This document shows positions 2,039 to 21,959 of a stretch of 23,584 bases of DNA, piece by piece (the first letter of the stretch is position 1; each line of letters starts with the position of its first letter). Under the pieces are notes generated by a model, which was given only the letters and a program-made list of their open reading frames with translations, was not told where the DNA came from and searched no databases. Position numbers and translations under genes: made by a program. The stretch is from an uncultured delta proteobacterium (GTDB taxonomy: Bacteria > Myxococcota > Myxococcia > Myxococcales > Anaeromyxobacteraceae). The DNA is taken from NCBI GenBank assembly GCA_963814585.1, contig CAWFDF010000006.1:1-23584 (forward strand). The letters run 5' to 3'.

Positions 2039-4174
2039 ATGCACCTGCATCGCTCCGCCTTCGTCGTCCTCGTCGCCGTGCTCCTCGGTGCGCACCTGAG
2101 CGGCTGCGAGCGACCCAGGCAGCCGGCTGGCCCGCCGTCCCAGCCAGCACCGCAGGCCCAGGAGGCCCCGCCCGGCTCGCCGGCACCTGAGACGCCGGCG
2201 ACCCCTGCCGCTCCGCCCTCGCCCACCGCCCCGCCGGACCCGGGCCAGGCGATGGCGCCCGGCTCGTCACCTTCACCGGGGCAGGCCGCGCAGCCGCCCG
2301 CGACGCCGGCGGCCGAGGCCGGAGCGCCGGCGGGCGCGGTCCGCGAGGGCGCCGCTGCCACGGCAGGTGCTGCTTCGGGTGGTCCTCCGGTCGGTGCCGC
2401 GGGCGTGTCTGCAGGTGCTGCTCCGGTCGGCGCTACGGGTGTTGCCACGGTCGGCGCAGGCGGCGCTACCGCAGGGGCCGCCGCCGCGGTCGCCCCAGGC
2501 GAGCCGTCACCGACGGTCGTCCCACCCTCGCCAGCGCGGCCGGCGACCCCCGTGGCGCTGGCGGTGAAGGCCCTGGGCGAGACCCGGGCGAACGTCACCT
2601 GGGAGCCCGGATCCGGCGGGACCGAGGCGGCCCGCTTCGCGGTCTGGCGAGAGGCGGTGGTGCTGGGCACCACCTCCGAGCGCCAGCTCGTGGTCCAGGG
2701 CCTGGCCCCGACGGCCAGGTCCTGCTTCAGGGTGGTGGCCTTCGACGGCGCCGGTCGCCGGTCCGACCCCTCGGAGCCGGTGTGCATCACGCCGCCGGAC
2801 CTCACCCCTCCGAGCGCCCCGGTGGTGCGGGCCAGCGCCCCGCGGCCCGGCGCCATCCAGCTCAACTGGGACGCCTCGTCCGACAACCTGGGCGTGGCCG
2901 CCTACCAGGTCCACCGCGGCGAGGCGGTGGTGGGGAAGGCGGCCAGGCTGGAGCTCGTGGAGACGGGGCTGCTGCCTGGGCGCGAGCACTGCTACACCGT
3001 CCGCGCCGTGGACGGCGCGGGCAACCCGTCGCGGCCGTCGGAGCCCGCCTGCGCCGTCACCCTGGACGTCACGCCGCCCGCGCCACCACCCGCGGTCCGC
3101 GCCCAGCCCGTGAACGAGACGAGCATCACGCTGACCTGGGGGGTCCCCACCGACGACGTCGGCGTGGTGGGCTACGAGCTGTGGCGCGACGCCAACCTGG
3201 TGGCGAGGCCGGCCGGAACCACGGCCACCATCGACGGGTTCACCGCCGCCACCCGCGCCTGCTTCACCGTGGTCGCCCTGGACAAGGCCGGCAATCGCTC
3301 CGGGCCGAGCGAGCCGGCCTGCGCCACCACCCTCGACCTGACGCCGCCCACCTCACCGCTGCAGCTCACCGCCCGCGCCGCGAGCGACCGCCGCATCGAG
3401 CTGGGCTGGATGCCGGCCAGCGACAACGTCGGGGTCACGGCCTACCAGGTGGTGCGGGGCGGCAAGGCCCTCGCCACCGTCCCGGAGCTGCAGTGGGCCG
3501 ACGAGAAGGCCGCGCCCGCCGTCCGCGCCTGCTACGTGGTCCACGCCCTGGACGCCGCCGGCAACAGGTCGAAGCCGGGCAACGAGGCCTGCGCCACGCC
3601 CCCGGACCTGACGCCGCCCACCATCCCGGGCAGCCCGGCCGCCCGGGCGCTCTCCTTCGACACCGTCGTGCTCGGGTGGAACCCGTCCCGTGACGACGTG
3701 GGCGTGACCGCCTACGAGGTGGTGCTCAAGGGCCGCAAGCCCTTCCGCGTGGCCAAGCCGCCGGCGACCGCCGCGGGCCTGGCGCCAGTGACCGAGTACT
3801 GCCTCCAGGTCCGAGCGCTCGACGCCGCGGGAAACGCATCGGAGCTTACCGGCCCATCGTGCGCCACCACGGCGGTGGCCGGTGCCCCCCGGGCCATCGA
3901 GGACCTCCAGCCGATGGCCGACGGCGGGAAGCTGACCCTGCACTGGACCGCTTCGAGCACGCCCGGCGTGATCTACCTGATCACCGTCGACGGCGGCAGG
4001 TCGCTCGGAGCGAGCCATGAGCCGTCCTTCCGCGTGGTGGGGCTGAAGCCCGGGGAGCGCCGCTGCTTCCAGGTCACGGCCCAGGATCCCGCAGGACGCG
4101 AATCGCCCAGATCGCAGGAGATCTGCGTCGCTGGTCCCGGGGGCCCCTCCGCGGCTCCTGCCGGGAGTCGCTGA
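2039..4174 (+). CDS. Lipoprotein with Pro/Ala-rich linker and six tandem fibronectin type III domains, 711 aa
   Basis: Lipobox LSG-C23 (TGC at 2105). About 145 aa of P/A/G-rich linker, then repeats of DxTPP..P...W..S.D[ND]VGV..Y.V...A.D.AGN.S (bacterial chitinase-A1-type FN3). No catalytic domain seen. Confidence 0.9.
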   Translation: MHLHRSAFVVLVAVLLGAHLSGCERPRQPAGPPSQPAPQAQEAPPGSPAPETPATPAAPPSPTAPPDPGQAMAPGSSPSPGQAAQPPATPAAEAGAPAGAVREGAAATAGAASGGPPVGAAGVSAGAAPVGATGVATVGAGGATAGAAAAVAPGEPSPTVVPPSPARPATPVALAVKALGETRANVTWEPGSGGTEAARFAVWREAVVLGTTSERQLVVQGLAPTARSCFRVVAFDGAGRRSDPSEPVCITPPDLTPPSAPVVRASAPRPGAIQLNWDASSDNLGVAAYQVHRGEAVVGKAARLELVETGLLPGREHCYTVRAVDGAGNPSRPSEPACAVTLDVTPPAPPPAVRAQPVNETSITLTWGVPTDDVGVVGYELWRDANLVARPAGTTATIDGFTAATRACFTVVALDKAGNRSGPSEPACATTLDLTPPTSPLQLTARAASDRRIELGWMPASDNVGVTAYQVVRGGKALATVPELQWADEKAAPAVRACYVVHALDAAGNRSKPGNEACATPPDLTPPTIPGSPAARALSFDTVVLGWNPSRDDVGVTAYEVVLKGRKPFRVAKPPATAAGLAPVTEYCLQVRALDAAGNASELTGPSCATTAVAGAPRAIEDLQPMADGGKLTLHWTASSTPGVIYLITVDGGRSLGASHEPSFRVVGLKPGERRCFQVTAQDPAGRESPRSQEICVAGPGGPSAAPAGSR

Positions 4175-4299: not shown

Positions 4300-4316
4300 C
4301 CGGCATGTGTTGTGCA
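4300..4316 (+). promoter_or_regulatory. Sigma54 (-24/-12) promoter
   Basis: CCGGCATGTGTTGTGCA: GG 4302-4303 and GC 4314-4315 with the required 10-nt gap; lies just upstream of the RBS and ATG 4350. Confidence 0.6.
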
Positions 4317-4349
4317 CAGGCGGAGGCCTCAACTCTTGGAGAGTTCTCG

Positions 4350-5939
4350 ATGATTTCGACAGTCCTGATGCTGGTGCTCACCGCCACGCCCGCCAACGCC
4401 GTGATCGCCCGCGTGAACGGCGAGGCCATCACCGCGGCGGCCGTCACCGCCCGGGCCACCAGCACCCGCACCAGTCCCCAGGTGGCGGCCGATGACCTGA
4501 TCGCCGAGGTGCTCCTCGGCGCCGAGGGAGCCAAGCTGGGCGTGAAGGCGCCGGCGACGGCCGCCCCGGCCATCGAGCTCGCCCGCCGGAACGCCGCCGT
4601 CGAGCGCTACCTGGAGGTCGTGGTCTACCCGGGCGTGCAGGTCCCCGAGGCCGATCTCCGCGAGCGCTTCCACCAGCGCGGCGACCAGGTCCGGCTGCTC
4701 CTGGTGGCCCGCCCCGACGAGGCCCAGGCCAGGGCGACCCTGGCGCGGATCGCCGCGGGCGCCTCCTTCGCGGACGAGGCCGCCACCTCGGTCGACCCGA
4801 CCTCCAAGGCGAAGAAGGGAGATCTCGGCTGGCTGCCTCGCTCGGCGCTCTCCGCGGCCCTGGCCAAGGAGGCCTTCGTCGTGCCCATCGGCAAGGTGCA
4901 GGGCCCGGTCCTCGCCGAGGGCGCCTGGAGCGTCTACCTGGTGCAGGACCGGCGCCTGCCGGACGAGGCGGCCTACGCCCTGGTGAAGGACCGGCTGCGC
5001 GCAGACCTCGAGCCCCAGGCTCGCTCCGCCGCCGCGGAGAAGCACCGGGCGAAGCTCATCGCCGACCTCAAGGGGAAGGTGGACGAAAAGGCCATCGCCG
5101 CCACCGGCGACGGTCTCCAGGCCACGCCAGAGCAGTCCGCCAAGGTGGTGGCCAGCGCCGGCAGCGTCAAGATCACCTACGGCCAGGTGCTCAAGGAGCT
5201 GGGGGGCGGCCACGGCGGCGCCGGTGGACCCGGGCGCGCCTCGCCCGAGGTGAAGGCCACGCTGGCCCAGGACCTGCTCGGACGGGCCGTGCTGGAGCAG
5301 GCCGCCCTGAAGCGCTTCTCGAAGGACCCGGCGGTCCTCGCCGCGGTGGCCCGGGCCGAGCGCGCCGCCGTCGCCGCCACCTACGCCGAGAAGCTGCGGC
5401 GCGAGGCTCCCGGGCCCACCACGGCCGAGGTGGAGGGACGCTACGAGGCCCGCAAGCGCGACTTCATGACCCCCGGTGGACGGCGCTGCTTCCAGCTGGT
5501 CGCTCCGACCGAGGAGGGGGTGAAGAAGCTCGCGGCCCGGGTCGCCGCTGGAGAGGATTTCGCCAAGGTGGCCGCCGACAGCTCGGATCGCCGGAGCGCC
5601 GCCAACGGCGGCGAGGTCGGCTTCATCACCGACGAGGAGATCGGGCGGGTCGAGCGGCCGGATGGCGATCCGGCGCTGGCGGCCGCCGTGGTGGGCACCC
5701 CGCCAGGCCAGCTGAGCAAGCCCGTCAAGACCCGCGCCGGCGTCAGGGTGCTCCGCTGCGAGGCCTACGTCCCTGCCAAGGGGGCCACCCTGGACGAGAT
5801 GCGCCACCGGATCACCATGGAGCTGAAGGGGGAGCGCTCCGTCGCCGCGGTTCGCCAGAGGGCCGCTGCGCTGCGAGAGAAGGCGAGCGTCCAGGTCGAC
5901 GAGGCCGCGCTCACCGGGATGCTCCCACCGAAGAAGTGA
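4350..5939 (+). CDS. Exported PpiC/parvulin-type (SurA/PrsA-like) foldase with two rotamase domains, 529 aa
   Basis: GGAGAG RBS at 4338-4343 favours ATG 4350 over 4305. Short signal peptide, VIARVNGEAIT start, two parvulin cores (GASFADEAATSVDPTSKAKKGDLGW; GEDFAKVAADSSDRRSAANGGEVGF...SKPVKTRAG). Confidence 0.88.
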   Translation: MISTVLMLVLTATPANAVIARVNGEAITAAAVTARATSTRTSPQVAADDLIAEVLLGAEGAKLGVKAPATAAPAIELARRNAAVERYLEVVVYPGVQVPEADLRERFHQRGDQVRLLLVARPDEAQARATLARIAAGASFADEAATSVDPTSKAKKGDLGWLPRSALSAALAKEAFVVPIGKVQGPVLAEGAWSVYLVQDRRLPDEAAYALVKDRLRADLEPQARSAAAEKHRAKLIADLKGKVDEKAIAATGDGLQATPEQSAKVVASAGSVKITYGQVLKELGGGHGGAGGPGRASPEVKATLAQDLLGRAVLEQAALKRFSKDPAVLAAVARAERAAVAATYAEKLRREAPGPTTAEVEGRYEARKRDFMTPGGRRCFQLVAPTEEGVKKLAARVAAGEDFAKVAADSSDRRSAANGGEVGFITDEEIGRVERPDGDPALAAAVVGTPPGQLSKPVKTRAGVRVLRCEAYVPAKGATLDEMRHRITMELKGERSVAAVRQRAAALREKASVQVDEAALTGMLPPKK

Positions 5940-6146: not shown

Positions 6147-9100
6147 ATGTTCGACCGCTCTCCCATGACGCTCCACGCAGGACCGAGGTCCGGCGCTCGC
6201 GGTCCTCACGGCGCCACGCTCCTCGCGCTGGCTGTCGTCGCGGCGGGAGTGCTGGCCCTGGGCGGGTGCTCCACCGGCGCCGGCGCCCGCGGTGGCAGCG
6301 CTGGCGGGTCCGGGCGGAAGGTCGCCGCCAAGGAGTGCGTGGCCTGCCACGCGGCGACGCTGAAGCAGCAGGCCCGCAAGCTCACCCACAAGCCCTTCGC
6401 GGACGACAAGGGGTGCGAGGCCTGCCACCGCCGCCACGGCATCGTCGGCGTCAACGTGCTCCAGAAGGAGGAGCCGGAGCTCTGCTTCGGCTGCCACGAC
6501 AAGCAGAAGAAGGAGTTCGGGCAGGGGGTGGTGCACGAGGCCATCCGCGGGACGGGCAAGGGCAAGTGCACCTCGTGCCACGCGGCCCACTCTTCCGACC
6601 TGCCGAACCTGATGCGGGTCTCGACCAACGAGGCCTGTGCCACCTGCCACAAGAAGGCGCAGCTTCAGGGGGCCAAGGTCCACGCGCCCGCCGCCAAGGA
6701 CTGCGGGACGTGCCACACGCCGCACGCCAGCTCCCAGAAGCTGCTCCTCGTCAAGGAGGAGAAGGCGCTCTGCGGCGGCTGCCACGACGCCGGCGACGCC
6801 AGGATGAAGAAGGCGCACGGTGGCCTCCCGATCTCCGGCGCGAGCTGCGTCCAGTGCCACTCCCCGCACTCCGCCGCCGCGGCCGGGGGGCTGCTCCCGA
6901 GCGTGCACGCGGTCGGGTCGGACTGCGCCGAGTGCCACACCGCCGGCTCGGACAAGGCCAAGCCCTTCGCCGTCAAGAAGGCGGCGCCGGAGCTCTGCTT
7001 CGGCTGCCACGACACCCAGCAAGCCGACCTCAAGAAGAAGGTGGTCCACCCGCCGGCCGAGGGCTGCACCGACTGCCACTCGCCTCACGCCGCCAAGGGG
7101 CCCAAGCTCCTGGTCCAGGGGGTCCGCGAGACCTGTGCCCAGTGCCACGAGCCCATCGCCGCGAAGCTGGCGACCAGGCCCCACGCGCCGGCCCGGGACG
7201 GGAAGTGCGCCGCGTGCCACGCGTCGCACGGCTCGGACAACAAGCGGCTCCTCGTCGCCACCGGCCCGGCGCTCTGCACCGGCTGCCACCAGGCCGCCGC
7301 CGACTGGCTCAAGGCCAAGGTGGTCCACGCCCCGGCCCGCTCCGGCGACTGCGGCGGCTGCCACGATCCGCACGGCTCGCCGAACGCCAAGCTGCTGGTC
7401 AAGGGCGCCGGCGAGCTGTGCTACGGCTGCCACCAGAAGCAGAAGGAGGCCTTCACCGGCGACAACGTCCACCGCCCGGTCCGCGAGGGCCAGTGCGCCG
7501 CCTGCCACCAGCCGCACGGCTCGGCGCAGGCCAAGCTCCTCAACGTCCCGGCCGCGAAGCTGTGCGACGGCTGCCACGCCTTCGACAAGCGCTACGAGAA
7601 GACCAAGCTCCACGCCCCGCTCGCCAGCGGAGGCTGCTCCGCCTGCCACGATCCCCACGTGGCCGGGCAGCCCAAGCTCCTCAAGTCCCCGGTCGCGAGC
7701 CTCTGCGCCGGGTGCCACGAGAAGGTGGCCAAGGGGCTCGACGCCAAGGGGATCGTCTCGACGCACCGGCCGGTCCGCAACGGCGAGTGCGCTGCCTGCC
7801 ACGAGCCACACGGCTCGAAGGACAAGGCCTTCCTGAGGAAGGGGCAGCTCGAGGTCTGCGGCGACTGCCACGGCGAGCTGGTGAAGCGGCTGGCGCGCAA
7901 GGACGCGCCCAGCCACGCCCCGGCCCGGGACGGCGACTGCGACGCCTGCCATGCCGGGCATGCCTCGGCCCAGCCGTCACTGCTCCTCAAGGCCGGGAAG
8001 CAGCTCTGCCTCGAGTGCCACGACGCCAAGGACGCGGCGCTGGTCAAGAGCCACTCCGGCTACAGCATCGAGGGGAGCTCCTGCCTCGGCTGCCATGATC
8101 CGCACTACGGCGACCGGAAGGGACTGGTTCGCCGCGTCGGCCACTCGCCCTTCGTCAACCGGGACTGCGGCTCCTGCCACGTGCCTGCCAAGCCGGGGGG
8201 CAGCGAGCCGAAGACCGTGGCCTCCGGGCGGGCGCTCTGCGAGGTCTGTCACGGCGACACCCGGACCAGCTTCGCCAAGAAGTTCGTCCACACTGCCGTG
8301 AAGCAGGAGCGCTGCGGCGGCTGTCACGCCCCGCACGCTTCCACCTCCGACAAGCTCCTCTCCAGGACCGGCGGGGCCCTCTGCTTCTCGTGCCACGACC
8401 CCAAGGCCTTCCAGAAGAAGGAGATGCACGCCCCGGTCAAGGCCGGCGAGTGCCTCAAGTGCCACGATCCGCACGCCTCCGACGCCAGGGGCGTGCTGGT
8501 CCGGACCGGCAACGAGCTCTGCCTGGGCTGCCACGCCGAGCAGAAGCGTGAGCTGGCGTCGAAGCACGTCCACGCCGCCGTCACCGGCGGGGCCTGCACC
8601 GACTGCCACGATCCGCACGGCTCGCCCTACCCGGCCATGCTGGTCTCGTCGCGCGAGAAGCTCTGCCTCAAGTGCCACGACACCAGGAAGCCGGCCATCC
8701 AGGCTGCACACCAGCGCTTCCCCCTGGCCGGGGTGGACTGCGCCTCCTGCCACAACCCGCACGGCTCCAGCCAGGCCGGGCTGATCCGCTCCAACTCCCA
8801 CCAGGTGTTCAGCGCGTGCGCCCGCTGCCACGCCACCACCGGCGCCAAGCCGCAGGCCCTCCTGGCCCAGAGCCCCGCGCTCTGCTTCCGCTGCCACGGC
8901 GACAAGAAGACCGAGGTCTCCGCCAAGACCGGCGTGCACGCCGCCGCCCAGGGCGACTGCACCGACTGCCACACGCCCCACGCCTCCAACGAGAAGGGGC
9001 TGGTCAAGGGCAACAAGGAGCGAGCCGTCTGCCTCGGCTGCCACGACGGGATCAAGGGCGACCTGGAGCGGTCCAGGTCGATCCACCCGGTCAAGGCCGC

Positions 9101-9419
9101 CGGCGGTCGCTGCACCGCCTGCCACCGCCCGCACTCCTCGAGCCAGGTCCGCCTGCTCAGCCAGCCGGCCGGCGAGCTCTGCCAGACCTGCCACAAGACC
9201 CACGCCCAGTTTACCCACCCCATCGGCAAGGGCGTGACCGACCCCAACACCGGCAAGGACATGAACTGCCTCTCCTGCCACGGTCCCCACGGGACCAGCC
9301 AGGATCACATCCTGCTCGGCAACCCGGCCCGCGGGCTCTGCATCCGGTGCCACGACTCCGACTCCGAGGACATGAAGCAGATGCGCAAGCCGAAGCCCGC
9401 AGGGCCCGCGGGAAGCTAG
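6147..9419 (+). CDS. Giant multiheme c-type cytochrome lipoprotein, 42 CXXCH motifs (paired-CXXCH / MtrA-DmsE-like repeats), 1090 aa
   Basis: Manual count of 42 CXXCH from CVACH to CIRCH. Repeating H-x-P-x4-5-CxxCHxPH-x-S...LL...LCxxCH unit. Lipobox LGG-C41 (TGC at 6267). GAGG RBS before ATG 6147 (ATG 6165 is an alternative start). Confidence 0.95.
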   Translation: MFDRSPMTLHAGPRSGARGPHGATLLALAVVAAGVLALGGCSTGAGARGGSAGGSGRKVAAKECVACHAATLKQQARKLTHKPFADDKGCEACHRRHGIVGVNVLQKEEPELCFGCHDKQKKEFGQGVVHEAIRGTGKGKCTSCHAAHSSDLPNLMRVSTNEACATCHKKAQLQGAKVHAPAAKDCGTCHTPHASSQKLLLVKEEKALCGGCHDAGDARMKKAHGGLPISGASCVQCHSPHSAAAAGGLLPSVHAVGSDCAECHTAGSDKAKPFAVKKAAPELCFGCHDTQQADLKKKVVHPPAEGCTDCHSPHAAKGPKLLVQGVRETCAQCHEPIAAKLATRPHAPARDGKCAACHASHGSDNKRLLVATGPALCTGCHQAAADWLKAKVVHAPARSGDCGGCHDPHGSPNAKLLVKGAGELCYGCHQKQKEAFTGDNVHRPVREGQCAACHQPHGSAQAKLLNVPAAKLCDGCHAFDKRYEKTKLHAPLASGGCSACHDPHVAGQPKLLKSPVASLCAGCHEKVAKGLDAKGIVSTHRPVRNGECAACHEPHGSKDKAFLRKGQLEVCGDCHGELVKRLARKDAPSHAPARDGDCDACHAGHASAQPSLLLKAGKQLCLECHDAKDAALVKSHSGYSIEGSSCLGCHDPHYGDRKGLVRRVGHSPFVNRDCGSCHVPAKPGGSEPKTVASGRALCEVCHGDTRTSFAKKFVHTAVKQERCGGCHAPHASTSDKLLSRTGGALCFSCHDPKAFQKKEMHAPVKAGECLKCHDPHASDARGVLVRTGNELCLGCHAEQKRELASKHVHAAVTGGACTDCHDPHGSPYPAMLVSSREKLCLKCHDTRKPAIQAAHQRFPLAGVDCASCHNPHGSSQAGLIRSNSHQVFSACARCHATTGAKPQALLAQSPALCFRCHGDKKTEVSAKTGVHAAAQGDCTDCHTPHASNEKGLVKGNKERAVCLGCHDGIKGDLERSRSIHPVKAAGGRCTACHRPHSSSQVRLLSQPAGELCQTCHKTHAQFTHPIGKGVTDPNTGKDMNCLSCHGPHGTSQDHILLGNPARGLCIRCHDSDSEDMKQMRKPKPAGPAGS

Positions 9420-9421
9420 GC

Positions 9422-10399
9422 GTGCGCCCGGGCGCGGCCATCTCCGTCGGCCTCCTCCTGGCGGTGCTGGCGGCGCCTGGTCGCGCCGGCGAGGAGGAGA
9501 CCACCTCACCGCTGGCGGTGGAGGACCTGGCCCCCGTCGCCATCACCTACGGCCACTTCTACGAGGGCGCCTTCCAGGGGCCGACCGGGGTGACCTGCGA
9601 CGCCCGCACCGGCGAGATGTACGTGGCCGACTCGGGCCGCGGACTGGTCGGCATCTTCGACCGGCGAGGCGCTCCGCTCTTCACGTTCGGAGACCCTGGC
9701 CGGCTCTCCAGCCCCGTCAAGGCCCTCGTCGATCGGGAAGGGAAGATCCTGGTCCTCGACGGCGTCGACCGGCGTCGGATCAGGCGTTACAGCTACCGCG
9801 GCGAGTTCCTGTCCTTCCTGGAGCTCGAGGGCATGGAGGCCAAGCCCAAGCTGGCCATCACCGCCATCGGGCTCGACGGCCAGGGGAACCTCTTCGTCGG
9901 CGACTCGGGCCACGGCGAGGTGCTGGCGTTCGACCCGAAGGGGCGGCTCCTGTTCCGCTTCGGCAACAAGGGCAAGGGCGCGAACGAGTTCGAGGCGATC
10001 ATGGGGATCGCCGTCACCGCCGAGCGCATCTACGTCTCGGACAGCGCGGGGCTCGGCGTCCAGGTCTTCGACCGGCGCGGCCGCTACCTGCGAGGCTGGG
10101 GGCGCCACGAGGCCGGGCGCGAGAACGTCTCCTTCCCGCACGGCATCAGCGTGGACGGGAAGGGCCGGATCGCCCTGGTCGACTCCCTGCGTCACGAGAT
10201 CAAGCTCTACGCTCCGGATGGCAAGCTGATCGGGCAATACGGTGGGGCGGGGAAGCGTCCGGGCGACGTCCTCTACCCGGCCGACGCCTCCTTCGACGGC
10301 ACGGGGAGGCTCTGCGTGGCCGATCGCGGCAACAACCGAGTGCAGGTCCTCGAGCCGCGCGAGCCGGCCCCGAAGCAGGCCCCGAAGCCGGCGCCGTGA
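9422..10399 (+). CDS. Exported NHL-repeat six-bladed beta-propeller, 325 aa
   Basis: GTG 2 nt after the upstream stop, in the frame of ORF 8672..10399. Signal peptide (VRPGAAISVGLLLAVLAAPGRA) then NHL repeats: FQGPTGV...MYVADSG, LSSPVKALVD, LFVGDSG, IYVSDS, FPHGISVD...LVDS, YPADASFD...VADRGNNRVQV. Confidence 0.9.
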   Translation: MRPGAAISVGLLLAVLAAPGRAGEEETTSPLAVEDLAPVAITYGHFYEGAFQGPTGVTCDARTGEMYVADSGRGLVGIFDRRGAPLFTFGDPGRLSSPVKALVDREGKILVLDGVDRRRIRRYSYRGEFLSFLELEGMEAKPKLAITAIGLDGQGNLFVGDSGHGEVLAFDPKGRLLFRFGNKGKGANEFEAIMGIAVTAERIYVSDSAGLGVQVFDRRGRYLRGWGRHEAGRENVSFPHGISVDGKGRIALVDSLRHEIKLYAPDGKLIGQYGGAGKRPGDVLYPADASFDGTGRLCVADRGNNRVQVLEPREPAPKQAPKPAP

Positions 10400-10731: not shown

Positions 10732-11847
10732 ATGAAGAAGCTCGCCTTCATCGCCCTCGCGGCCTTCGCCTTCACGGCGACCGCTGCCGAGTACCATACC
10801 TACACGACGTTGATCTGCAGCGACTGCCACACCATGCACGCCCAGCGGACGCACAGCTTCGGGTCAGAGACCCTCAACGCCAACGACACCGTCGTCTTCG
10901 GCGCTGGCGACACCGGTGGCCACGAGGCCCTGCTGCTCGGCGCCGACGCCAACCGGACCTGCCTGGTCTGCCACAACGGCGCCCGCGGCCCGGACGTCTT
11001 CGGCACGAACTCCAGCTCGTACGCCCTCCAGACCCGCTCCGCCGGCGCCCTGAACGCCGCCACCGGCTACGCCGTCGCCAACGAGGACGGCTACCTCCCC
11101 TACATGGGTCACTCGCTCGGCTCGATGGACATGCCCCCGGGCCGCAACCCCGCCATCTACGCCTACCCCGGCGACATGCAGTGCGTCCGCTGCCACACCG
11201 CCCACGGCCGGCCCAGCTACCGCAACCTGCGTGACCGCGGCAGCGACGCCGTGGTCCGCGAGCCGAGCTACGTGGTCCTGCCGAGCGCCCAGCTGACCAT
11301 GAACTTCGGCTACGACGTCAACCTGTTCGGCAACGACTACAGCGCCGACAGCGTCGTCTACACCTCGGCCGTCGGCTCCACGAACGGCCAGAACAAGATG
11401 ACCGCCTTCTGCGGCATGTGCCACGGCAACTACCACGACGACATCGTCGGCGGCACGGCCCCGAACGACTACTTCCGCCGGCACCCGACCGACCAGATCA
11501 CCCTCACCGCGCGGCAGATCTTCACGGCCGAGACCGCGAACGCCACCAACGTGTCGGTCAAGCTGACCTACATCCAGGGCGCGGCCCTCAACCGCGGCGC
11601 CGAGGGCGGCGTCAACTTCGCCTCCGACCCGACCGCGACGGCGACCGTCGGCTGCCTCACCTGCCACAAGGCCCACGGCAACCTGAACTCCTTCGGCCTC
11701 TTCTTCCCGGGCAACTCGGTCGGGCCGACCGGCGCGAACGTCCACCAGGGTGATGCCAACAAGGAGCAGGGTGGCGGCACGTCGATCCGCAACCTCTGCA
11801 ACACCTGCCACAGCCAGGGCCGTACGCCCGTGGCGGCTTTCCAGTAA
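10732..11847 (+). CDS. omcS: OmcS-family hexaheme c-type cytochrome, probable major nanowire subunit, 371 aa
   Basis: GGAG RBS and Sec signal MKKLAFIALAAFAFTATAA. Six CXXCH. The motif chain follows Geobacter OmcS as I recall it: YHx6CSDCHTMH, LLLG..CLVCH, GH, PPG, CVRCHTAHG..YRNL, M..FCGMCH...H, RHP, V.CLTCHKAH, R.LCNTCH. The symbol denotes family membership, not proven orthology. Confidence 0.85.
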   Translation: MKKLAFIALAAFAFTATAAEYHTYTTLICSDCHTMHAQRTHSFGSETLNANDTVVFGAGDTGGHEALLLGADANRTCLVCHNGARGPDVFGTNSSSYALQTRSAGALNAATGYAVANEDGYLPYMGHSLGSMDMPPGRNPAIYAYPGDMQCVRCHTAHGRPSYRNLRDRGSDAVVREPSYVVLPSAQLTMNFGYDVNLFGNDYSADSVVYTSAVGSTNGQNKMTAFCGMCHGNYHDDIVGGTAPNDYFRRHPTDQITLTARQIFTAETANATNVSVKLTYIQGAALNRGAEGGVNFASDPTATATVGCLTCHKAHGNLNSFGLFFPGNSVGPTGANVHQGDANKEQGGGTSIRNLCNTCHSQGRTPVAAFQ

Positions 11848-11922: not shown

Positions 11923-12849
11923 GTGTCGACCAGGAAGCCATCAAGGCCCGGGGGAGCGCACCAAGCGGGCTGGCCGCACGCCGCACTGATCCTCATCGCG
12001 CCGCTCCTCCTCGGGGGCTCCTGGCACCAGTACGACAAGCTCGTTTGCAGCGACTGCCACACCATGCACAACAGCGCCGCCGGACAGGCGATGCGCTACG
12101 ACCTCGACGACACCCCGGCCCAGTACCTGCTCCGCAGCAGCAGCCCCGACACGCTCTGCCTGCACTGCCACGGCGCGATGCCGGTGCAGGGCGCGCCCGG
12201 TGTCACGCTCCAGGAGGGCGGGATGCCGCCCTTCGACTCGGCCGCCGGGTTCTTCTCCACCTCCGGCAGCGGGGGACAGCCGGTCATCGGGCTGGGCCAC
12301 GTCATCGGCGTGGCGCCCACCGAGGACCCCGCGACCTACTTCTCCAGCACGGCCATGACGCTCGGCTGCCTGAGCTGCCACGACCAGCACGGCAGCGCCC
12401 TCTACCGCAACCTCCGCCCCGGCCCCTCGGGGCGCGGCGGCAGCGCCTCGCCGCTGGTCACCGAGCGGGTGCTGGCCGGCCAGGGGGCGGGGAGCACCGT
12501 CTACGGCGCCGCCAACGTCCGCTACCAGTCGGGCTTCACCGAGTGGTGCCTCGACTGCCACGACCAGTACAGCCATTACCACTTGGACGTCACCTTCGAG
12601 GCCCGTCCGGATCTCTTCTCCTACTACTCCGCCAACGCCCTCTCGACGACCGGGGCGCAGCTGCCTCGGCCGCGCGTCCAGACGCCCATCCTGGAGGCAG
12701 TGCCGGACCCGACCAACCAGCTCTTCTGCCTCTCCTGCCACAAGGCCCACGGCAGCGGGGCCCCCCGCGGCGTCGTCTACCCCGACCCCGCCGACTCCAG
12801 CTCGCTCTGCGCCCGCTGCCACGTGCCGCCGGCGGCGGTGGCGCCATGA
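11923..12849 (+). CDS. Second OmcS-family hexaheme cytochrome (shorter paralogue), 308 aa
   Basis: GTG start with GAGG RBS and hydrophobic signal. WHx6CSDCHTMHNS, YLLR..CLHCH, GH, CLSCHDQHG..YRNL, FTEWCLDCH, CLSCHKAHGS, LCARCH: six CXXCH in the same order as the upstream gene. Confidence 0.85.
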   Translation: MSTRKPSRPGGAHQAGWPHAALILIAPLLLGGSWHQYDKLVCSDCHTMHNSAAGQAMRYDLDDTPAQYLLRSSSPDTLCLHCHGAMPVQGAPGVTLQEGGMPPFDSAAGFFSTSGSGGQPVIGLGHVIGVAPTEDPATYFSSTAMTLGCLSCHDQHGSALYRNLRPGPSGRGGSASPLVTERVLAGQGAGSTVYGAANVRYQSGFTEWCLDCHDQYSHYHLDVTFEARPDLFSYYSANALSTTGAQLPRPRVQTPILEAVPDPTNQLFCLSCHKAHGSGAPRGVVYPDPADSSSLCARCHVPPAAVAP

Positions 12850-14290
12850 GTTGGATCCCGCCTGGAAGGCGCCGCCTGCTCCGCGGCGCCGTCGCCGCGG
12901 TCCTGCTGACGGCGCTGCCGAATGCCGCCTCCGCCGGTCTCGAGGCCTTCCGCACCTCCCGCCACGGCGACCCGGTCAGCGGGCCGCTGCGCGATCGCAA
13001 GTACCGGCCAGGGACCTGCCTGCAGTGCCACGGCAGCTCCCGGGACTCCTCCGTCGGTGGCTCGGCCAACCGGATGGCGCTCTTCGCGGCCAACGACGAC
13101 CAGCTCTGCCTCACCTGCCACAAGGCAGCCCGCGGCTCCTTCCCGGGTCCGTCGCTGGTGACCCGCTCGACGCACAGCCGGTCGTCGCTGGTGGTCTGGC
13201 CCGGGCCGGTTCCGAAGCAGCGCCCCCGGGGCGACGGAGGACTCTGCCTCAACTGCCATGATCCGCACGGGCGGACCGACGCGCTCGGCCCATCCCGGCC
13301 ATGCTGGTCGCGCGCGGCGACGACCTGTGCCTCGCCTGCCACCGCGGTGGCGGGGGTGGTTCCGACATCTCCTCCGAGCTGAACGAGATCAGCCGGCACC
13401 CGCGCCTCGGCGGCGGTGCCGGGATGGGCGCCACGCTCCAGGGGACGGTCTGCGTCGATTGCCACAATCCGCACCTGGCACGGCGCGACTCCACCGGCAC
13501 CCAAGTCGGCACCGCCGGCCTGATGGACGGAGTCCGCCGGGTCAGGCCGGTCAACGGCGCGCCCGGCTCCCTGCCGCGGCTCGTCCCGGTGGGGCCGGAG
13601 GACCGCTCCCCGACCCAGGAGTACGAGGTCTGCTTCCGCTGCCACGCCGGCGCGACGGGCGCCGCCGCCGGGCTAGCGGCGCCGACGGGCGCCGGGCTGC
13701 TGCCGCCCACGGGCGCCGGGCTGGTGCCGGCGACGGGCGCGAGCGCCGCGGTGGCCCGCGGCGAGGTCGCCTCGGTCCTCAACCCGGCCAACGCCTCCTA
13801 CCACCCGGTCGAGGCCCCGGGGCGGGACGGCGCCATCGACCAGGCCGCCTTCGTCAGCGGCTGGCGCTCCGGCCAGATGGTCACCTGCAGCGACTGCCAC
13901 GGCTCCGGCAGTGGCCGCGTCAGGGGGCCGCACGGCTCGAGCTTCCCGAAACTGTTGAAGAAGCGATACCCGGTCGCGGCGCCAACCGCCCAGCCGGAAC
14001 CCTCCGACCTCTGCCTCGACTGCCACGCCTGGGGCGCCTATGCCGCCGCCGGTGCGGGGAGGGTCGCCACCGCGAGCCGCTACGGCGGCCACGCCTCGCA
14101 CGCCGGCCAGGGCCTCTCCTGCCACGCCTGCCACGAGCCCCACGGCAGCCCGAAGCTCCCCTCGCTCCTGGCGATTCGCTCGCCGGGCCTGGTCACCTAC
14201 CAGCGCGACGCTTCGGGCGGCACCTGCACCGTGAGCTGCCACGCCAAGACCCCGCCCACCGCCAGCTACCGGCTGGCCTACCCGCGGTAG
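12846..14290 (+). CDS. Multiheme cytochrome c (9 CXXCH + 1 CX3CH), ~481 aa, frameshifted at 13289-13291
   Basis: ATG 12846 overlaps the upstream TGA. Signal peptide, CLQCH, CLTCH, CLNCHDPHG in the first frame; CLACH, CVDCH, CFRCH, CSDCH, CLDCH, CHACH, CTVSCH in the frame of ORF 13301..14290. Adding one C gives continuous ...DALGPIPAMLVARGDDLCLACH. Confidence 0.85.
13655..13741 (+). repeat. In-frame tandem repeat (ACGGGCGC... at 13655, 13685, 13709, 13733; ~24-bp unit, TGAGLxxx)
   Basis: Peptide TGAAAGLAAP-TGAGLLPP-TGAGLVPA-TGA between CFRCH and NPANASYHPV. Confidence 0.7.
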
Positions 14291-14305: not shown

Positions 14306-16465
14306 ATGGGATCCCAGGCTACCCACCGCCAGCGCGCCGCCCTGATCGCCTGCCTGCTCGCGCTCGCCCCGGGCGCGGCGGAGGCCGCCGTGGACGGCCT
14401 GGGGGCCACCGCCCAGCTGCAGTACAACTGGTTCGAGACCGGAGACAACTCCTCCGACGCGATCAACCAGCGCTACTACCTGTTCTTCGACAAGCCGCTC
14501 TCAGGCCTCCTCCAGTACCGGGCCAAGCTCGGCTACATCGAGGATCACGCCAACATCTACACGGAGGGCATGCGCCCGGGGCAGCGGGCGGTCCAGCCGG
14601 GGCTGCAGCTCGACTACAAGCTCGGCTGGCTGACGGTGAACGGGCTCTACGAGTACCAATGGATCCAGCGGTTCTCCAGGGACGTGGAGGCGGTGACCGC
14701 CACCAACCACCGGGGCGACACCACGGCGAACATCCAGGCCACCGAGAACCTCCGCTTCATCGGCCATTTCGAGTGGCTGGGCCAGCGGCAGGCGAGCACC
14801 GGCGTGCGGCTCGACCGGTACCGGGCCGAGGCCAACGCCACCTGGCAGCGCGGGGTCAACTCCGTCTCGCTCGGCCCGGTCCTCGACGTCTACGACAACT
14901 CGGCCACCGGCTACCACCGGACCACGCTCTCCCCGACCCTCAAGGCGACCTACGGCGGCACCTGGCTCGGCGGGACGCTCAGCGTCTCGCTGAACGCCGC
15001 CGGGGCCTACAGCCAGATCGACGAATCGGCCCGCGGGACCAGCCCGGTCAACGAGCCGCGCGAGATCGAGCCGCTCGCCGCGCTCTACGTGGTGAGCGGC
15101 ACGCCCGCCGACACCACCGCCACGCCCTCCTCCTCCATCCCCGCGCTGATCGACGGAAACTACGTCGCCAGCACGGGGATCTCGCTGGGGCCAGACGGCG
15201 TCTCGTCGCAGAACCTGGCGCTCGACATGGGCCGGGTGATCACCCTCGACGAGTTCCGCATCTACGTCCGTGACCCCGCCGGCAACCCGCTCCAGGAGGG
15301 CGGCCCGGTGACCTGGACGGTCTACACCAGCCTCGATGGGCTGCGCTGGGTCCCCACCGCCTCCGCCGGGGCCTCCTTCGACCTGGGGCTGAGCGCCTGG
15401 ACCATCGCCTTCACGCCGACCGAGGCGCGCTACTTCAAGGTGGTCAACTTCGGGGTCAACCAGCTCCCGACCGTGGTGACCGAGATGGAGATCTACGAGC
15501 ACCGGGTCTTCCTCCCCGACGAGCACCGGACCTCCTGGACCGCGACCCAGCTGGTGGGGGGAGGCCTGACGCTCCAGCTCGCGAGCAAGCTCTCGGCCAC
15601 CGTGTCCGGCAGCCTCGGCGCCAACCAGCAGCGGCCAGCCGGGCGCGCGCCCTACGACTCCCTCACCGACGTGATCATCCTCGGGCTGACCGCGGGCCCC
15701 TGGGCGGACCTCACCTTCTCGGGCTCTTACAGCCACAACGACTTCGCCAGGACCGCCTCCCCCACGCTGGCCGGCGACATCGGCTCGCTCGGCGTGACCT
15801 TCGCGCCGAGCCCGCTCCTGTCCACCGGCCTGACGGCCTCGGCCCAGCGGCAGGACTACGGCGACTTCCGGCTCGAGTCACAGGGGCTGTCACTCACCGT
15901 CGGCCTGAACCCCATGAGGAAGCTCAACCTCGGCGGCTACGCCACGGTGAACCGGTCGGTGAACTACCCGTACAGGCTGGAGCAGACCGTCATGTCGTAT
16001 GGCGGCAGCGCCCTCCTCCTCCTGCACCGGGCCTTCGACGTCACGCTGGCCGCCTCGGTGCAGCAGATCCTCTCGGGAGAGCAGAACCTGATCCCGGTCG
16101 GGGTTCCGATCGTCCCCATGGCCATCCAGCGCAGCTACGCCGCGACGCTGCGCTACCACCCGAACGCCCAGCTCGATCTGAGCGCCCAGTTCGGGTATAC
16201 CGAGACCGGAGTGGCCGATGGCCCCGTCCAGAACTACCGCGTCTACTGGATCCCCTTCCCGAGCGGCGCCTTCAGCCTCGTCATCAACTACCAGCAGAAC
16301 ATCGAGCCGATCTCGGGCTCGAGCCTGAGCCGACTCTCCCTCATGCCGGGGTGGAACATCAGCAAGCACGTGGCCCTCACCGGGACGGCCTTCCGCCAGT
16401 GGGGCACGGGCCCGTTCACGGTCCCGCTCGAGACCTACTACCTGGCACTGACCTTCTTCCTATGA
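14306..16465 (+). CDS. Outer-membrane beta-barrel protein with an inserted F5/8 type C (discoidin-like) domain, 719 aa
   Basis: Signal peptide ending AEA. Long runs of alternating amphipathic, Tyr/Gly/Ser-rich strands; C-terminal beta-signal-like YYLALTFFL. Central LIDGN...LALDMG...FRIY...WTVYTSLDGLRW...ARYFKVV...VTEMEIY segment (~15146-15499). Confidence 0.8.
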   Translation: MGSQATHRQRAALIACLLALAPGAAEAAVDGLGATAQLQYNWFETGDNSSDAINQRYYLFFDKPLSGLLQYRAKLGYIEDHANIYTEGMRPGQRAVQPGLQLDYKLGWLTVNGLYEYQWIQRFSRDVEAVTATNHRGDTTANIQATENLRFIGHFEWLGQRQASTGVRLDRYRAEANATWQRGVNSVSLGPVLDVYDNSATGYHRTTLSPTLKATYGGTWLGGTLSVSLNAAGAYSQIDESARGTSPVNEPREIEPLAALYVVSGTPADTTATPSSSIPALIDGNYVASTGISLGPDGVSSQNLALDMGRVITLDEFRIYVRDPAGNPLQEGGPVTWTVYTSLDGLRWVPTASAGASFDLGLSAWTIAFTPTEARYFKVVNFGVNQLPTVVTEMEIYEHRVFLPDEHRTSWTATQLVGGGLTLQLASKLSATVSGSLGANQQRPAGRAPYDSLTDVIILGLTAGPWADLTFSGSYSHNDFARTASPTLAGDIGSLGVTFAPSPLLSTGLTASAQRQDYGDFRLESQGLSLTVGLNPMRKLNLGGYATVNRSVNYPYRLEQTVMSYGGSALLLLHRAFDVTLAASVQQILSGEQNLIPVGVPIVPMAIQRSYAATLRYHPNAQLDLSAQFGYTETGVADGPVQNYRVYWIPFPSGAFSLVINYQQNIEPISGSSLSRLSLMPGWNISKHVALTGTAFRQWGTGPFTVPLETYYLALTFFL

Positions 16466-17046
16466 TCTACCCCGCGCAGCGCCGGTCTCGACTCCCCTGC
16501 GGCCGAGCCGCCTGGCCCCTCGCCCTGGTGCTCGCCCTGGGGTGCGCGGCGCAGCAGCCGTACGTCAGCGAGCGCGTCGACTTCTCGCTGATCCGGTCGG
16601 TCGCCATCCTCCCCTTCGACGACGCGGCGGGCGAGAAGCTGGGATCGGAGCGGGTCCAGCGGATCTTCATGACCGAGCTGCTGGCCCTCGGCGTCTTCGA
16701 TCCGGTCGAGCCCGGGCAGGTGGTCCGGGCGGTCCGCACCGAGCGGATCGATCCCGCCGCGTTCACGCCGGACGACATCAAGAAGCTGGGGAAGCTGCTG
16801 GGCGTCCAGGGCGTCTTCGTCGGCTCGATCATCGAGTTCTCCGAGGGGAGGTCCGCCTCGCAGTCGGCGCAGGTGACGCTGCAGATCCGGCTGCTCGACG
16901 TGGAGTCGGGGAAGACGGTCTGGTCCACCAGCCGGAGCGGGACCGGCGCGACGGTGACCGGGCGGCTCTTCGGGATGGGGTCGCTCACCGCCTCCGAGGT
17001 CGCGCGGCAGCTGATCCGCGAGGAGCTCGAGCGCCTCGTCCGGTGA
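16462..17046 (+). CDS. CsgG/PelC/GNA1162-like outer-membrane lipoprotein, 194 aa
   Basis: ATG 16462 overlaps the barrel stop (ATGA). Lipobox LALG-C; VAILPF, LGKLLGVQGVFVGSI, VTLQIRLLDVESGKTVWS motifs of the CsgG/TolB-N/PelC fold. Confidence 0.8.
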   Translation: MIYPAQRRSRLPCGRAAWPLALVLALGCAAQQPYVSERVDFSLIRSVAILPFDDAAGEKLGSERVQRIFMTELLALGVFDPVEPGQVVRAVRTERIDPAAFTPDDIKKLGKLLGVQGVFVGSIIEFSEGRSASQSAQVTLQIRLLDVESGKTVWSTSRSGTGATVTGRLFGMGSLTASEVARQLIREELERLVR

Positions 17047-17049: not shown

Positions 17050-18111
17050 ATGAGCCTCCGGGCGGTCGTCTCCCTCCTGCTCCTCGCCGCGCCCCTGGCC
17101 GCCCCTGCCGCCGAGGGGCGCCTGGTGCTGCTCCCGTTCGACGGCCAGGTCGGCCCCACCTTCCGCGGGGCGGTCCTGCAGACCGTCATGACGGCCCTGG
17201 CCAGGCGGGGCTACGTGGTGGTGGGAGGGGAGGTGGCGGAGCGCTTCCTGGAGGAGCGCCGCATCCGCTACCTCGACTCCCTGATCCCCGAGGACATCCG
17301 CGAGCTCGCCGAGGAGTTCCAGGCCGATGGCGTGGTGGTGGGGGCCTTCCTCGCCATCCCGGATGGGCCGGAGCCGGAGGCCGCCCTCGCCGCCCGGCTG
17401 ATCCGGGCGGACGGTCGGATGGCCTGGACCGCCACCGTTGGACTGTCGTCGCTCGGGGAGCCAGGCGTCGGCGCGGTCGGCGAAATCAAGCGCACTCTGC
17501 GTCCGGCCGAGCAGCTCACCGCGGCCGCCTCGCAGCTGTTCCAGGGCTTCCCAGAGAAGGGTGCGCCGCTCCCCGTCCGGATTGCCGGGACCACGGCCGG
17601 GCCGGCCCCCAGGACCTACCGGGCGCCCGGCTTCTTCCGAGAACGCCGGCGGGTCTGCCTGCTCCCGTTCGCCAACGCCACCGCCTCCCAGGCCGCGCCT
17701 CGCGCGGTGGAGGCGATCCTGGCCCGGGCGCTCGGGGAGCGGAACCAGTTCTACGTGGTGGAGCCGGCCGAGCTGCGCCGCGCCTTCGTGACCGAGGGGA
17801 TCTGGAGCCCGCGCTGGCTGACCCTGGACCACTTCCGCCGGCTCAGCGCCCGCGTTGGCGGTTGCGCCTTCCTGAGCGGGGACATCCTGACGTACGGTAG
17901 GACCACTGACGCGGCCGGCGGGAGCACCCCCGCCGTGGAGATCTACGTCAGCCTGGTCGAGCCGCCGGCCGGGCGGACCGTCTGGTCGGCGCTCCACGTG
18001 CGGCGGGGCCATGAGTACGAGCACCTGCTCGGCCTGGGCGCGCTCCAGACCAGGTTCGAGGTGGGCGAGCAGGTCGTGCAGGAGCTGGTCAAGGGGCTCT
18101 TCGCCCCGTGA
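17050..18111 (+). CDS. Exported protein with two tandem CsgG/PelC-like domains, 353 aa
   Basis: Signal peptide. Domain 1: LVLLPFD...ADGVVVG...ARLIRADGRMAW. Domain 2: VCLLPFAN...FLSGDILTY...SLVEPPAGRTVWS. Confidence 0.75.
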   Translation: MSLRAVVSLLLLAAPLAAPAAEGRLVLLPFDGQVGPTFRGAVLQTVMTALARRGYVVVGGEVAERFLEERRIRYLDSLIPEDIRELAEEFQADGVVVGAFLAIPDGPEPEAALAARLIRADGRMAWTATVGLSSLGEPGVGAVGEIKRTLRPAEQLTAAASQLFQGFPEKGAPLPVRIAGTTAGPAPRTYRAPGFFRERRRVCLLPFANATASQAAPRAVEAILARALGERNQFYVVEPAELRRAFVTEGIWSPRWLTLDHFRRLSARVGGCAFLSGDILTYGRTTDAAGGSTPAVEIYVSLVEPPAGRTVWSALHVRRGHEYEHLLGLGALQTRFEVGEQVVQELVKGLFAP

Positions 18112-18139
18112 GAAGGTCATGAGACCGAAGGGAAGCCAC

Positions 18140-20008
18140 ATGAAGAAGCTGCTCCTCATCGCCGCGGCGGCCGGGCTCTGCTCCGGCTGCGCCGCGCCGC
18201 GCTACCTCGCCAAGGTCAACGGTGAGGAGATCACCGGCGCCGACATGCGCCGCGAGTTCGGCAAGCGCCACCGGTCCATGGAGAGGTACCTGGCCACCGA
18301 GCCCGAGGTGCGCAAGGTCCTCAGCTCGGTCATCGACCGGAAGCTCTTCCTCCAGGAGGCCCGCCGCGCCGGCCTCCAGGACGACCCGGCCCTCCTCGAG
18401 GTGATCCAGGGTGAGCGCGAGCGCAAGCTCGTCGAGACCCTGGTCCGGCGCGAGGTCGACGACCCGGCCCAGCCGACCGAGGCGGAGGTGGCCGCGGCCT
18501 ACAAGCTGATGGAGCAAGGGGGCCTGGCGAGGGAGGTGGTCACGGCCACCCGCGCCGAGGCGGAGGAGGTGCGGACCCGGGCCCTCGCCGGCGACGACTT
18601 CGAGGCGCTGGCGCGGGAGCGCTCCATCGCCCGGAGCCGCCTCAACGGCGGGCTGCTGGCGCTCCGCTTCGGCGATGCGGAGGTGGCGCGCGAGGAGGCC
18701 GGGCGCGCCCTGCGCGAGGGGGACATCTCCCCGGTCTTCGAGATGAGGCAAGGCTGGGCGGTCCTCAAGCTGGAGGAGCGGAAGATCGTGGTCCCGCCGG
18801 ACCTGGCGGTCGTGCAGGCGAAGATCTCGGCCATCCTCAAGCGGCGCAAGGTGGAGGTGCTCGATCGGCAGCTCATCGCGGCCCTGCGGGCCAAGTACTC
18901 CGCACAGGTGGCGCCCTGCGACTTCTCGCTGGCCTCGCTGGAGAAGGCGCGCACCACCACGGTCGAGACCGTCTGCGCCACCTGGACCGGCGGCTCGTAC
19001 ACGCTGTCGCAGCTGGCGGCCCGGCTGCCGCTGGACCGGCTCCGCGCTGCCCCACCGGAACGGTACGACGCCGAGGTCGAGCTGAGGGTCGGCGACGCGG
19101 TGGCGGAGCGGCTGCTCCTGGCCGAGGCCATCGCCCGCGGCCTCGAGAAGGATCCGGAGGTGGTCGAGCCGGTCCAGGCGCTCGAGGAGAAGCTCCTGGT
19201 CGAGCTCTACCTGGAGCGCTACGTCACGCTCGAGGTGACGGTCAGCGACGCCGAGGTGGAGGCCGCCTACAAGGCGCAGAAGGCCGAGCTGGTCGTGCCT
19301 GAGTCGCGCCTCATCGCGCAGATCGAGGTGGCCAGCGCCGAGGCCGCCGCCGCCGCGCAGCAGCGCCTCGGGGAGGGGGAGCGCTTCGATGCGGTCGCCG
19401 GGGAGCTCTCAACCAACGTCGAGCAGGCCCAGCGTGGTGGGGTGGTCGGGTGGAAGACGCGAAAGGAGGTGTCCGACACGTTCGCCTCCGTGTTCGCCGC
19501 GAGGCAAGGTGCGGTGGTGGGCCCGATCGCGGCCGGGGGCCGCTTCTACCTCGTCAAGGTCATGGAGATCCGGCCGGAGACGCCGCTCGAGCGGACCGAG
19601 GCGGAGGCCAAGGTCCGGGAGACGCTGCTGACCGCCCGCCGCTTCGAGCGCTTCGAGCGCTTCCTCGACCAGCTCAGGAGGGAGTCCGAGATCGAGGTGA
19701 GCGACGCAGGCATCAAGCGCTACCTGGAGGAGAACCCGGCCCCGGCGGTGACGCCACCGCCCGCGCCAAGCGCCGGCCAAGGTGGTCATGCCGGCATGGG
19801 CTCGATGCCCGGCGACCTGCCGCCGGTCGGCATGCCCGGGGGGATGCCTGGTGGCCACGGTGGGCCACCGCCGGGCGGAATGCCGGGAGGGCACGGGGGT
19901 CCTCCACCGGGCGCGAAGTCGCCCACGCCGGGCGCCACGCCGCCGGCTGCGACGTCGCCAGGTGCTGCGCCGCCGGGCCCGGCGACGCCCAGGCCAAGCA
20001 CGCCCTGA
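18140..20008 (+). CDS. PpiC/parvulin-type foldase lipoprotein with two rotamase domains and a Gly/Pro/Met/His tail, 622 aa
   Basis: MKKLLLIAAAAGLCSG-C lipobox (ATG 18119 is an alternative start). LAKVNGEEIT; GDDFEALARERS...NGG; GERFDAVAGELS...GGVVGW...GPI...FYLVKV. Confidence 0.87.
   Translation: MKKLLLIAAAAGLCSGCAAPRYLAKVNGEEITGADMRREFGKRHRSMERYLATEPEVRKVLSSVIDRKLFLQEARRAGLQDDPALLEVIQGERERKLVETLVRREVDDPAQPTEAEVAAAYKLMEQGGLAREVVTATRAEAEEVRTRALAGDDFEALARERSIARSRLNGGLLALRFGDAEVAREEAGRALREGDISPVFEMRQGWAVLKLEERKIVVPPDLAVVQAKISAILKRRKVEVLDRQLIAALRAKYSAQVAPCDFSLASLEKARTTTVETVCATWTGGSYTLSQLAARLPLDRLRAAPPERYDAEVELRVGDAVAERLLLAEAIARGLEKDPEVVEPVQALEEKLLVELYLERYVTLEVTVSDAEVEAAYKAQKAELVVPESRLIAQIEVASAEAAAAAQQRLGEGERFDAVAGELSTNVEQAQRGGVVGWKTRKEVSDTFASVFAARQGAVVGPIAAGGRFYLVKVMEIRPETPLERTEAEAKVRETLLTARRFERFERFLDQLRRESEIEVSDAGIKRYLEENPAPAVTPPPAPSAGQGGHAGMGSMPGDLPPVGMPGGMPGGHGGPPPGGMPGGHGGPPPGAKSPTPGATPPAATSPGAAPPGPATPRPSTP
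19838..19909 (+). repeat. 2 x 36-bp in-frame repeat encoding GGMPGGHGGPPP
   Basis: Identical 12-aa units; 9 of 12 codons differ only at the third position. Confidence 0.8.
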
Positions 20009-21895: not shown

Positions 21896-21959
21896 AGGCA
21901 CTCCCGGGCTCCTTCCGGGCTGAAGGGCGGCGACGCCTGGGCTATCCTCGCGACCCGCC

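Follow-up and report, generated by a model that had tools for sequence, protein, structure and literature searches.

The window analysed here is a stretch of 23,584 nucleotides from an uncultured delta proteobacterium of the Anaeromyxobacteraceae (GenBank assembly GCA_963814585.1), and it makes up the entire contig CAWFDF010000006.1 (C6). It carries a gene for a c-type cytochrome with 42 CXXCH heme-binding motifs, which very probably is a single-chain equivalent of the OscI and OscJ cytochromes, encoded as a pair in Geobacter. The gene and its parts are as follows.

6147..9419, +: 42-heme c-type cytochrome, very probably a single-chain OscI+OscJ equivalent, 1090 amino acids (aa) (open reading frame, motif count and collinearity)
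6147..6269, +: predicted signal peptide ending at a lipobox, LALGG before Cys41, with Ser as residue +2 (pattern-based)
6336..6938, +: module 1, hemes 1–9, with nine conserved distal His, ending in a three-heme hinge (alignment)
6996..8180, +: module 2, hemes 10–26, with 17 conserved distal His; modules 1 and 2 together correspond to the 26-heme OscI-type protein (alignment)
8181..8237, +: 19-aa linker between hemes 26 and 27, the gene split point in 26+16 systems (comparison with split loci)
8238..8831, +: module 3, hemes 27–35, with nine conserved distal His (alignment)
8883..9353, +: module 4, hemes 36–42, with seven distal His; modules 3 and 4 together correspond to the 16-heme OscJ-type protein (alignment)

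The 42 motifs lie between residues 64 and 1069 and are spaced 22–29 aa apart, while 2000 shuffled sequences contained 0.53 CXXCH on average and five at most. The 88 His residues comprise 42 in the motifs, 44 free ones after Cys41 and two before it, so our recount confirmed the 42 motifs and 44 additional His given in a preliminary description of this DNA, made from the letters and their reading frames. Cys41, in the lipobox-like LALGG-C that follows a hydrophobic stretch, is the only Cys outside the motifs. The paired-CXXCH profiles PF09699/TIGR01905 (Pfam, NCBIfam) matched 20 stretches, and TIGR03508 (DmsE family) gave 480.8 bits against a cut-off of 192.2, as the total of seven stretches; this DmsE-like similarity was strongest at residues 60–239 and favoured neither end. 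The top match among solved structures was chain 6r2q_A (residues 855–1074, E 2.6e-18), which we take to be MtrA, the PDB label displayed for the chain being unrelated. The earlier suggestion of an MtrA/DmsE-type paired repeat is borne out by these matches. The protein had also been called Lys-rich, which is correct for this sequence (8.3% Lys) but not for the family, where the medians are 6.2% Lys and a net charge of −32 (74 proteins) versus +41 here; Lys-richness and basic charge are thus a lineage-specific outlier.

The genes GSU2495 and GSU2494 are named oscI and oscJ, respectively (PMC13194489). A preprint gives 26 hemes for GSU2495 and lists G. luticola and Geobacter H2geo as carriers of the eight-gene block GSU2500–GSU2493, tied to OmcS maturation (bioRxiv 2025.11.06.686851). 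As proxies for the osc pair, in place of G. sulfurreducens sequences, we used loci of G. luticola (L023), Geobacter H2geo (L025) and Geomonas oryzae. At L023 the genes follow in the order hexaheme (cut), propeller, barrel, two CsgG-like genes, peptidyl-prolyl isomerase (PPIase), 26-heme, 16-heme and NHL. We take GSU2494 (OscJ/PccJ) to have 16 hemes, in agreement with the proxy loci.

When the 26- and 16-heme proteins were joined, all 42 hemes aligned one to one with those of the window protein in 5/5 loci at 38–40% identity, and 39–40 of the 42 distal His were matched in these loci. In both loci examined for register, the best starts fell at hemes 1 and 27. BLASTP aligned the window protein with the 26-heme protein of L023 at 37% identity over 657 aa (E 4e-122) and with the 16-heme protein of the block at 37% over 392 aa (E 4e-69). 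The preliminary description had left a choice between fusion and expansion relative to the Geobacter cytochromes, and the collinearity of all 42 hemes with the 26+16 pair answers for fusion. Judging from these alignments, it is very probable, close to certain, that the 42-heme protein is fused OscI+OscJ. Since it is read as one open frame and not as two secreted proteins, it represents a variant of the osc pair rather than a plain member.

Two further contigs of the assembly, C1 and part of C16, match the window at 88–94% identity. The C1 copy of the 42-heme gene is gapless, has 42 motifs and is 94.5% identical at the nucleotide level, while the C16 copy has 12 and 30 motifs on either side of a one-base frameshift. 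Three true paralogous clusters were considered and rejected: both C6 and C1 are short contigs that match a single stretch of C16 in their entirety, which is more like strain haplotypes. Exact DNA repeats inside the gene reach 29 bp at most, and the long internal repeats are no more than about 65–71% alike, so a recent repeat expansion was rejected. The 42-heme gene is among the best conserved genes in the three copies (94%), and the first of the two hexaheme genes of the cluster is the least conserved (81–83% nucleotide identity). The ratio of nonsynonymous to synonymous substitution (dN/dS) between C6 and C1 is 0.19. The array is genuine and under purifying selection. A mis-assembled repeat array, named earlier as a possible refutation, is contradicted by the divergence of the repeats, the gapless C1 copy and 72 homologs with the same count. 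The assembly does contain many indel errors around this region, one of them near position 13290 in a nine-heme gene. Nevertheless, an array collapsed or expanded in assembly, or a false fusion produced by long-read error, is extremely improbable, as the repeats are too diverged to collapse, the frame is open across the heme 26/27 junction in all three copies, and those homologs share the count of 42. Four small-share DNA runs of a single study produced nothing beyond short fragments of contigs, with no piece reaching across the whole gene, and were not used as evidence.

An alignment of 72 proteins of the 42-heme type was used to assess the heme ligands. In the window protein 41 free His occupy conserved columns, of which 39 are conserved at 99–100%, His224 at 88% and His931 at 64%; the 42nd conserved His is at position 1019 here and at 1022 in 90% of relatives. 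They are distributed as 9, 17, 9 and 7 for hemes 1–9, 10–26, 27–35 and 36–42, and the running tally of conserved His never deviates from the heme index by more than one. A nearby His is thus possible for every heme, and each half of the split form would be self-sufficient. This agrees with the earlier view that His suffices for bis-His ligation throughout, with 42 conserved His at about one per heme. Met and other axial ligands were rejected, since no alignment column of the mature protein has Met at 50% or more. The His distribution is compatible with, though no proof of, a string-like chain of hemes that all have bis-His ligation.

Modules 1–3 each end in a three-heme hinge, and the breakpoint of the split genes coincides with the second of these. 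Among 180 sequences, conservation outside the ligands peaks after heme 2, where module 1 has the motif CExCHxRHG..LxL; a separate conserved motif, HPxG....DPR (DPN here), precedes heme 41 in module 4. These end motifs are likely docking sites. The mass per heme is 2.6 kDa. In peptide-minimised cytochromes the length scales with heme number, at about 27 hemes per 200 Å (PMC7096707), and by this scaling 42 hemes would give about 31 nm when straight, so the tens of nanometres proposed in the preliminary description hold for a straight chain.

The homolog search yielded 473 matches from 8000 scored candidates. Among the best 120 of the 473, which were examined, the count is exactly 42 motifs in 72 proteins and 26 in another 23. 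The 26-motif proteins among the matches listed align, with one exception, from the N-terminal end. A search with the C-terminal 394 aa added 109 proteins, including 51 with 16 motifs, and nearly all of the 43 listed 16-motif proteins have a signal-like N-terminal stretch of their own. Ten regions of same-family genomes comprised six adjacent 26+16 pairs, one fused 42-heme gene, two regions cut by contig ends (one genome) and one 28-heme relative. A split-type alignment served as the seed for a scan of named genomes, which listed 80 of its 246 confirmed loci. Of these 80, the 26+16 arrangement accounts for 66 and the fused one for a single locus, and the remaining 13 are truncated, carry frameshifts or are a few hemes off. 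The sampling of forms is thus biased by the seeds. The heme sum of 42 is constant in both fused and split forms.

The tree built with FastTree comprises 94 fused and 86 split rows (180 in all, identical rows dropped) and requires at least four changes of state, with split forms in three places among long fused branches. The same-family loci cluster with named Anaeromyxobacteraceae, so that the host is likely a member of this family. A 42-heme gene labelled Archangiaceae (L088:807-4058) is nested in the main split clade as a re-fused form. Rooting by internal modules was attempted with 30 proteins. Module 1 placed the root between an all-fused and a mixed group with 91–94 support in the Shimodaira–Hasegawa-like approximate likelihood-ratio test (SH-aLRT; 29/30 rows), while modules 2b and 3 were mixed and gave no resolved root. 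We therefore consider a fused ancestral form probable, with the reservation that the tree contains long branches.

Several relatives depart from both forms. Protein P0100 (1217 aa) joins a SurA/parvulin PPIase to a 26-heme OscI-type protein. L152 and L156 have another layout, with a 23-heme gene, NHL, an 8-heme gene and NHL. In a same-family genome, a 53-heme gene (L016:1277-7804) is close to a split 26+16 cluster. The 28-heme relative, found in several same-genus genomes and at L019:4715-6940, spans query residues ~100–780; the L019 copy is without recognised osc neighbours. The number 42 is also not the highest: another gene of the genome has 58 motifs, related repeat proteins have up to 131, and an 86-heme cytochrome is in print (PMC7096707). 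The 58-motif gene (C14:170279-179632, −) encodes a lipoprotein-like cytochrome of 3078 aa with 53 aa per heme, and the genome also has 28- and 29-heme genes (C8:540103-544566 and C14:232125-235967).

The genes surrounding the 42-heme gene in the window are the following.

4305..5939, +: SurA/parvulin-type PPIase, OscH-like copy 1 (family match)
9422..10399, +: NHL beta-propeller, GSU2493-like by position, starting 2 bases past the cytochrome stop (family match)
10732..11847, +: OmcS-family hexaheme 1, candidate filament subunit (profile; the most variable gene of the three copies)
11923..12849, +: OmcS-family hexaheme 2 (profile)
12846..14290, +: nine-heme cytochrome with a one-base frameshift near 13290 here, a single frame in the C16 copy (motif count)
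14306..16465, +: large predicted outer-membrane barrel with an F5/8 insert, OscE-like (position, homology to locus L023)
16465..17046, +: CsgG/LpoB-like lipoprotein, OscF-like (family match)
17050..18111, +: tandem CsgG/GNA1162-like protein, OscG-like (family match)
18011..20008, +: SurA/parvulin-type PPIase, OscH-like copy 2, true start probably near 18119–18140 (family match)

The frameshift near 13290 is probably a read error, and fused-type loci often carry a 6–12-heme gene at the position of the nine-heme cytochrome. A profile built from both hexahemes together with five relatives outside Geobacter matched OmcS (6ef8) at E 6.9e-20, which bears out the OmcS-type filament context assumed in the preliminary description; hexaheme 1 alone as the query gave no match to OmcS at E up to 1. 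The divergence of hexaheme 1 and the conservation of the 42-heme gene would be expected if exposure were limited to hexaheme 1.

Neighbours were counted at the 14 fused and 68 split loci whose flanks extend over 9 kb or more, with profiles built from these same loci. OmcS-like genes were present at 11/14 fused and 44/68 split loci, CsgG-like genes at 12/14 and 64/68, NHL at 13/14 and 68/68, and the barrel at 12/14 and 62/68 (74/82 in all). A PPIase was nearby at 2/14 fused and 67/68 split loci. The barrel of fused loci (L100–L168) is often shorter, yet homologous (hhalign probability 99.3). Further out, a membrane tetratricopeptide-repeat (TPR) protein, an LIC_10190-family membrane protein and a multi-FN3 protein flank the cluster (20015-23582 and 2039-4174). 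Many split loci likewise have adjacent TPR genes, and a role in filament modification is conceivable. A frame at 777-1892 (−) combines glycosyltransferase family 2 and DUF2304 and probably represents two genes joined by a frameshift.

With a large barrel so frequent, it is conceivable that the cytochrome is part of a porin–cytochrome conduit, with one end threading the OscE-like barrel as MtrA does in MtrB, or that it is a surface-exported lipoprotein wire. The match to 6r2q_A at residues 855–1074 points in this direction, as does Ala at +7, a matrix signal of M. xanthus (PMC3222651), though one not kept in P0003. However, among 37 barrel sequences no MtrB-type family was found in the Pfam matches and no barrel in the PDB matches, a result that leaves distant fold likeness possible, and an MtrB-type porin was therefore rejected as the adjacent partner. 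Moreover, the DmsE-like similarity marks no special end, published work assigns the barrel to OmcS secretion, and the low variability among the three copies argues against exposure. We consider the conduit or surface wire improbable.

The preliminary description had placed the lipid anchor in the inner membrane and had the wire reach the filament base without diffusible shuttles. Such a shuttle-replacing wire is consistent with the lipobox pattern, which is real, with a length of 31 nm against a periplasm of 20–30 nm, and with a review noting a trans-periplasmic route independent of PpcA-E (PMC12307469). However, the lipobox pattern was called in only 11/90 fused forms (one probably false, two from this locus), leaving 79/90 without a call, and it is missing in P0002, which is 73% identical to the window protein. 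Two sets of 26-heme proteins gave 8/85 and 23/50, and the 16-heme proteins 3/86. Asp or Lys at +2, the signal for inner-membrane retention in E. coli and M. xanthus (a loose rule, 8/12 there; PMC3222651), occurs in 0/45 lipobox calls of the family, and the residue is Ser here. The genome encodes LolA and, on C8, small c7 trihemes. Ser at +2, the lack of Asp/Lys and the presence of LolA point to an anchor polarity opposite to that first described, and shuttles are probably available given the c7 trihemes. Thus, the anchor is optional and more likely at the outer membrane, and the inner-membrane wire is improbable.

Our preferred reading, to which we give a probability of roughly 0.55, places a chain of hemes in the periplasm, docked on the export complex of the outer membrane and passing or buffering electrons into the base of an OmcS-type filament. 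The 42 hemes would be bis-His ligated by neighbouring His and would form an elongated chain of up to about 31 nm, with bends possible at the three hinges. The protein would reside in the periplasm, with its lipidated N-terminus at the outer-membrane side, and may dock on the filament-export complex. Electron donors would be c7 shuttles or dehydrogenases of the inner membrane, delivering to the far end of the chain or to points along it, and the electrons would then be passed or buffered into the filament base. In split systems the two proteins might dock tail to head, restoring the same chain. The fixed heme count and register, the local His balance, the cluster context, the conserved motifs at both ends and the low variability of the gene among the three copies relative to hexaheme 1 argue for this reading. 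In G. soli grown on ferrihydrite, pccJ and the adjacent cytochrome gene were up about 30-fold, alongside omcS/omcT (PMC6013743).

Several observations weigh against it. A GSU2494 mutant was wild-type-like, as given second-hand in a table of PMC9248073 citing Aklujkar 2013. The oscJ gene is listed as frameshifted in an electrode-adapted lineage, where OmcS is not needed (PMC13194489). PpcA-E charge OmcS directly (PMC10954620), and Geobacter could thus do without a fixed wire. The length of about 31 nm exceeds most periplasms (<30 nm) but falls short of that of G. sulfurreducens (>40 nm; PMC10954620). The available summary of Shen 2025 gives roles to OscD-H and none to OscI/J. Finally, the recurring neighbours included no gene that we recognised as an inner-membrane partner, for which no dedicated search was made; the membrane TPR gene at 20015 recurs only patchily among the loci.

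The wild-type-like mutant would also suit an assembly aid or capacitor, that is, a heme-dense reservoir, perhaps folded back at the hinges, which would keep filament subunits in the right redox state while they fold and are exported, or would store electrons, without being the main route of respiration. The location among folding and export genes and the joining of a PPIase to a 26-heme protein in P0100 are in line with it, and the three register-breaking hinges could permit fold-back. However, a reservoir has no obvious need for exactly 42 hemes in a fixed register across distant phyla, and a PPIase is nearby at so few of the fused loci (2/14). We regard such a role as unlikely.

Returning to the docked periplasmic chain, its bolder extension is that the nanowire machine began with a single 42-heme lead of about 30 nm across the periplasm, that OscI and OscJ are its split halves docking tail to head as a shuttle-independent filament input, and that the number 42 is a ruler of envelope geometry. 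We put this forward as a tentative idea, less probable than its negation. A more direct prediction of the fusion is that OscI works together with OscJ as a single chain whose joining point is known. In addition, the source labels of the 42-heme homologs, where given, include Zixibacteria, Latescibacterota, Krumholzibacteria, Gemmatimonadaceae and the FCB group, and the first four of these widen the range of OmcS-type filament clusters. Filament anchoring and electron entry to cytochrome nanowires are stated open questions (PMC12307469).

Published work already covers the osc pair, its cluster, the idea of spanning the periplasm and higher numbers of hemes. A search of the open-access literature, not including Shen et al. 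2025 and its supplements, found no account of a fused 42-heme protein. With the Geobacter osc pair the window shares the 26+16 heme order, the distal His and the neighbours (OmcS-like hexahemes, barrel, two CsgG-like genes, PPIase and NHL). It differs in the single polypeptide, a rearranged gene order and two PPIases, and its protein is on a different branch than the Geobacter-type pairs. The nine-heme cytochrome sits ahead of the barrel, where Geobacter has OscD, and tblastn with three queries gave no match to an OscD-like propeller gene at E 1e-3 in the genome, which is 91.7% complete.

Like the MtrA/DmsE decahemes, the 42-heme protein has a paired-CXXCH repeat, a His-only supply of axial ligands and a low mass per heme. 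Unlike them, it has 42 hemes instead of ten (fourfold), four modules with three-heme hinges, no detected MtrB-type partner and a linkage to a filament cluster. The PCC3 cytochromes of iron oxidisers (21–27 hemes) are likewise long and peptide-minimised and are encoded beside a barrel gene, and for them a span across the periplasm has already been proposed (PMC10734462, PMC7096707). With 42 hemes at 2.6 kDa each, the window protein falls within the range of a PCC3-like, periplasm-spanning cytochrome (~27 hemes or more, less than 5 kDa per heme); the likeness drawn here is one of features. It is set apart from PCC3 by its OmcS-like filament genes, CsgG-like proteins and PPIase, and by the fixed number of 42 hemes.

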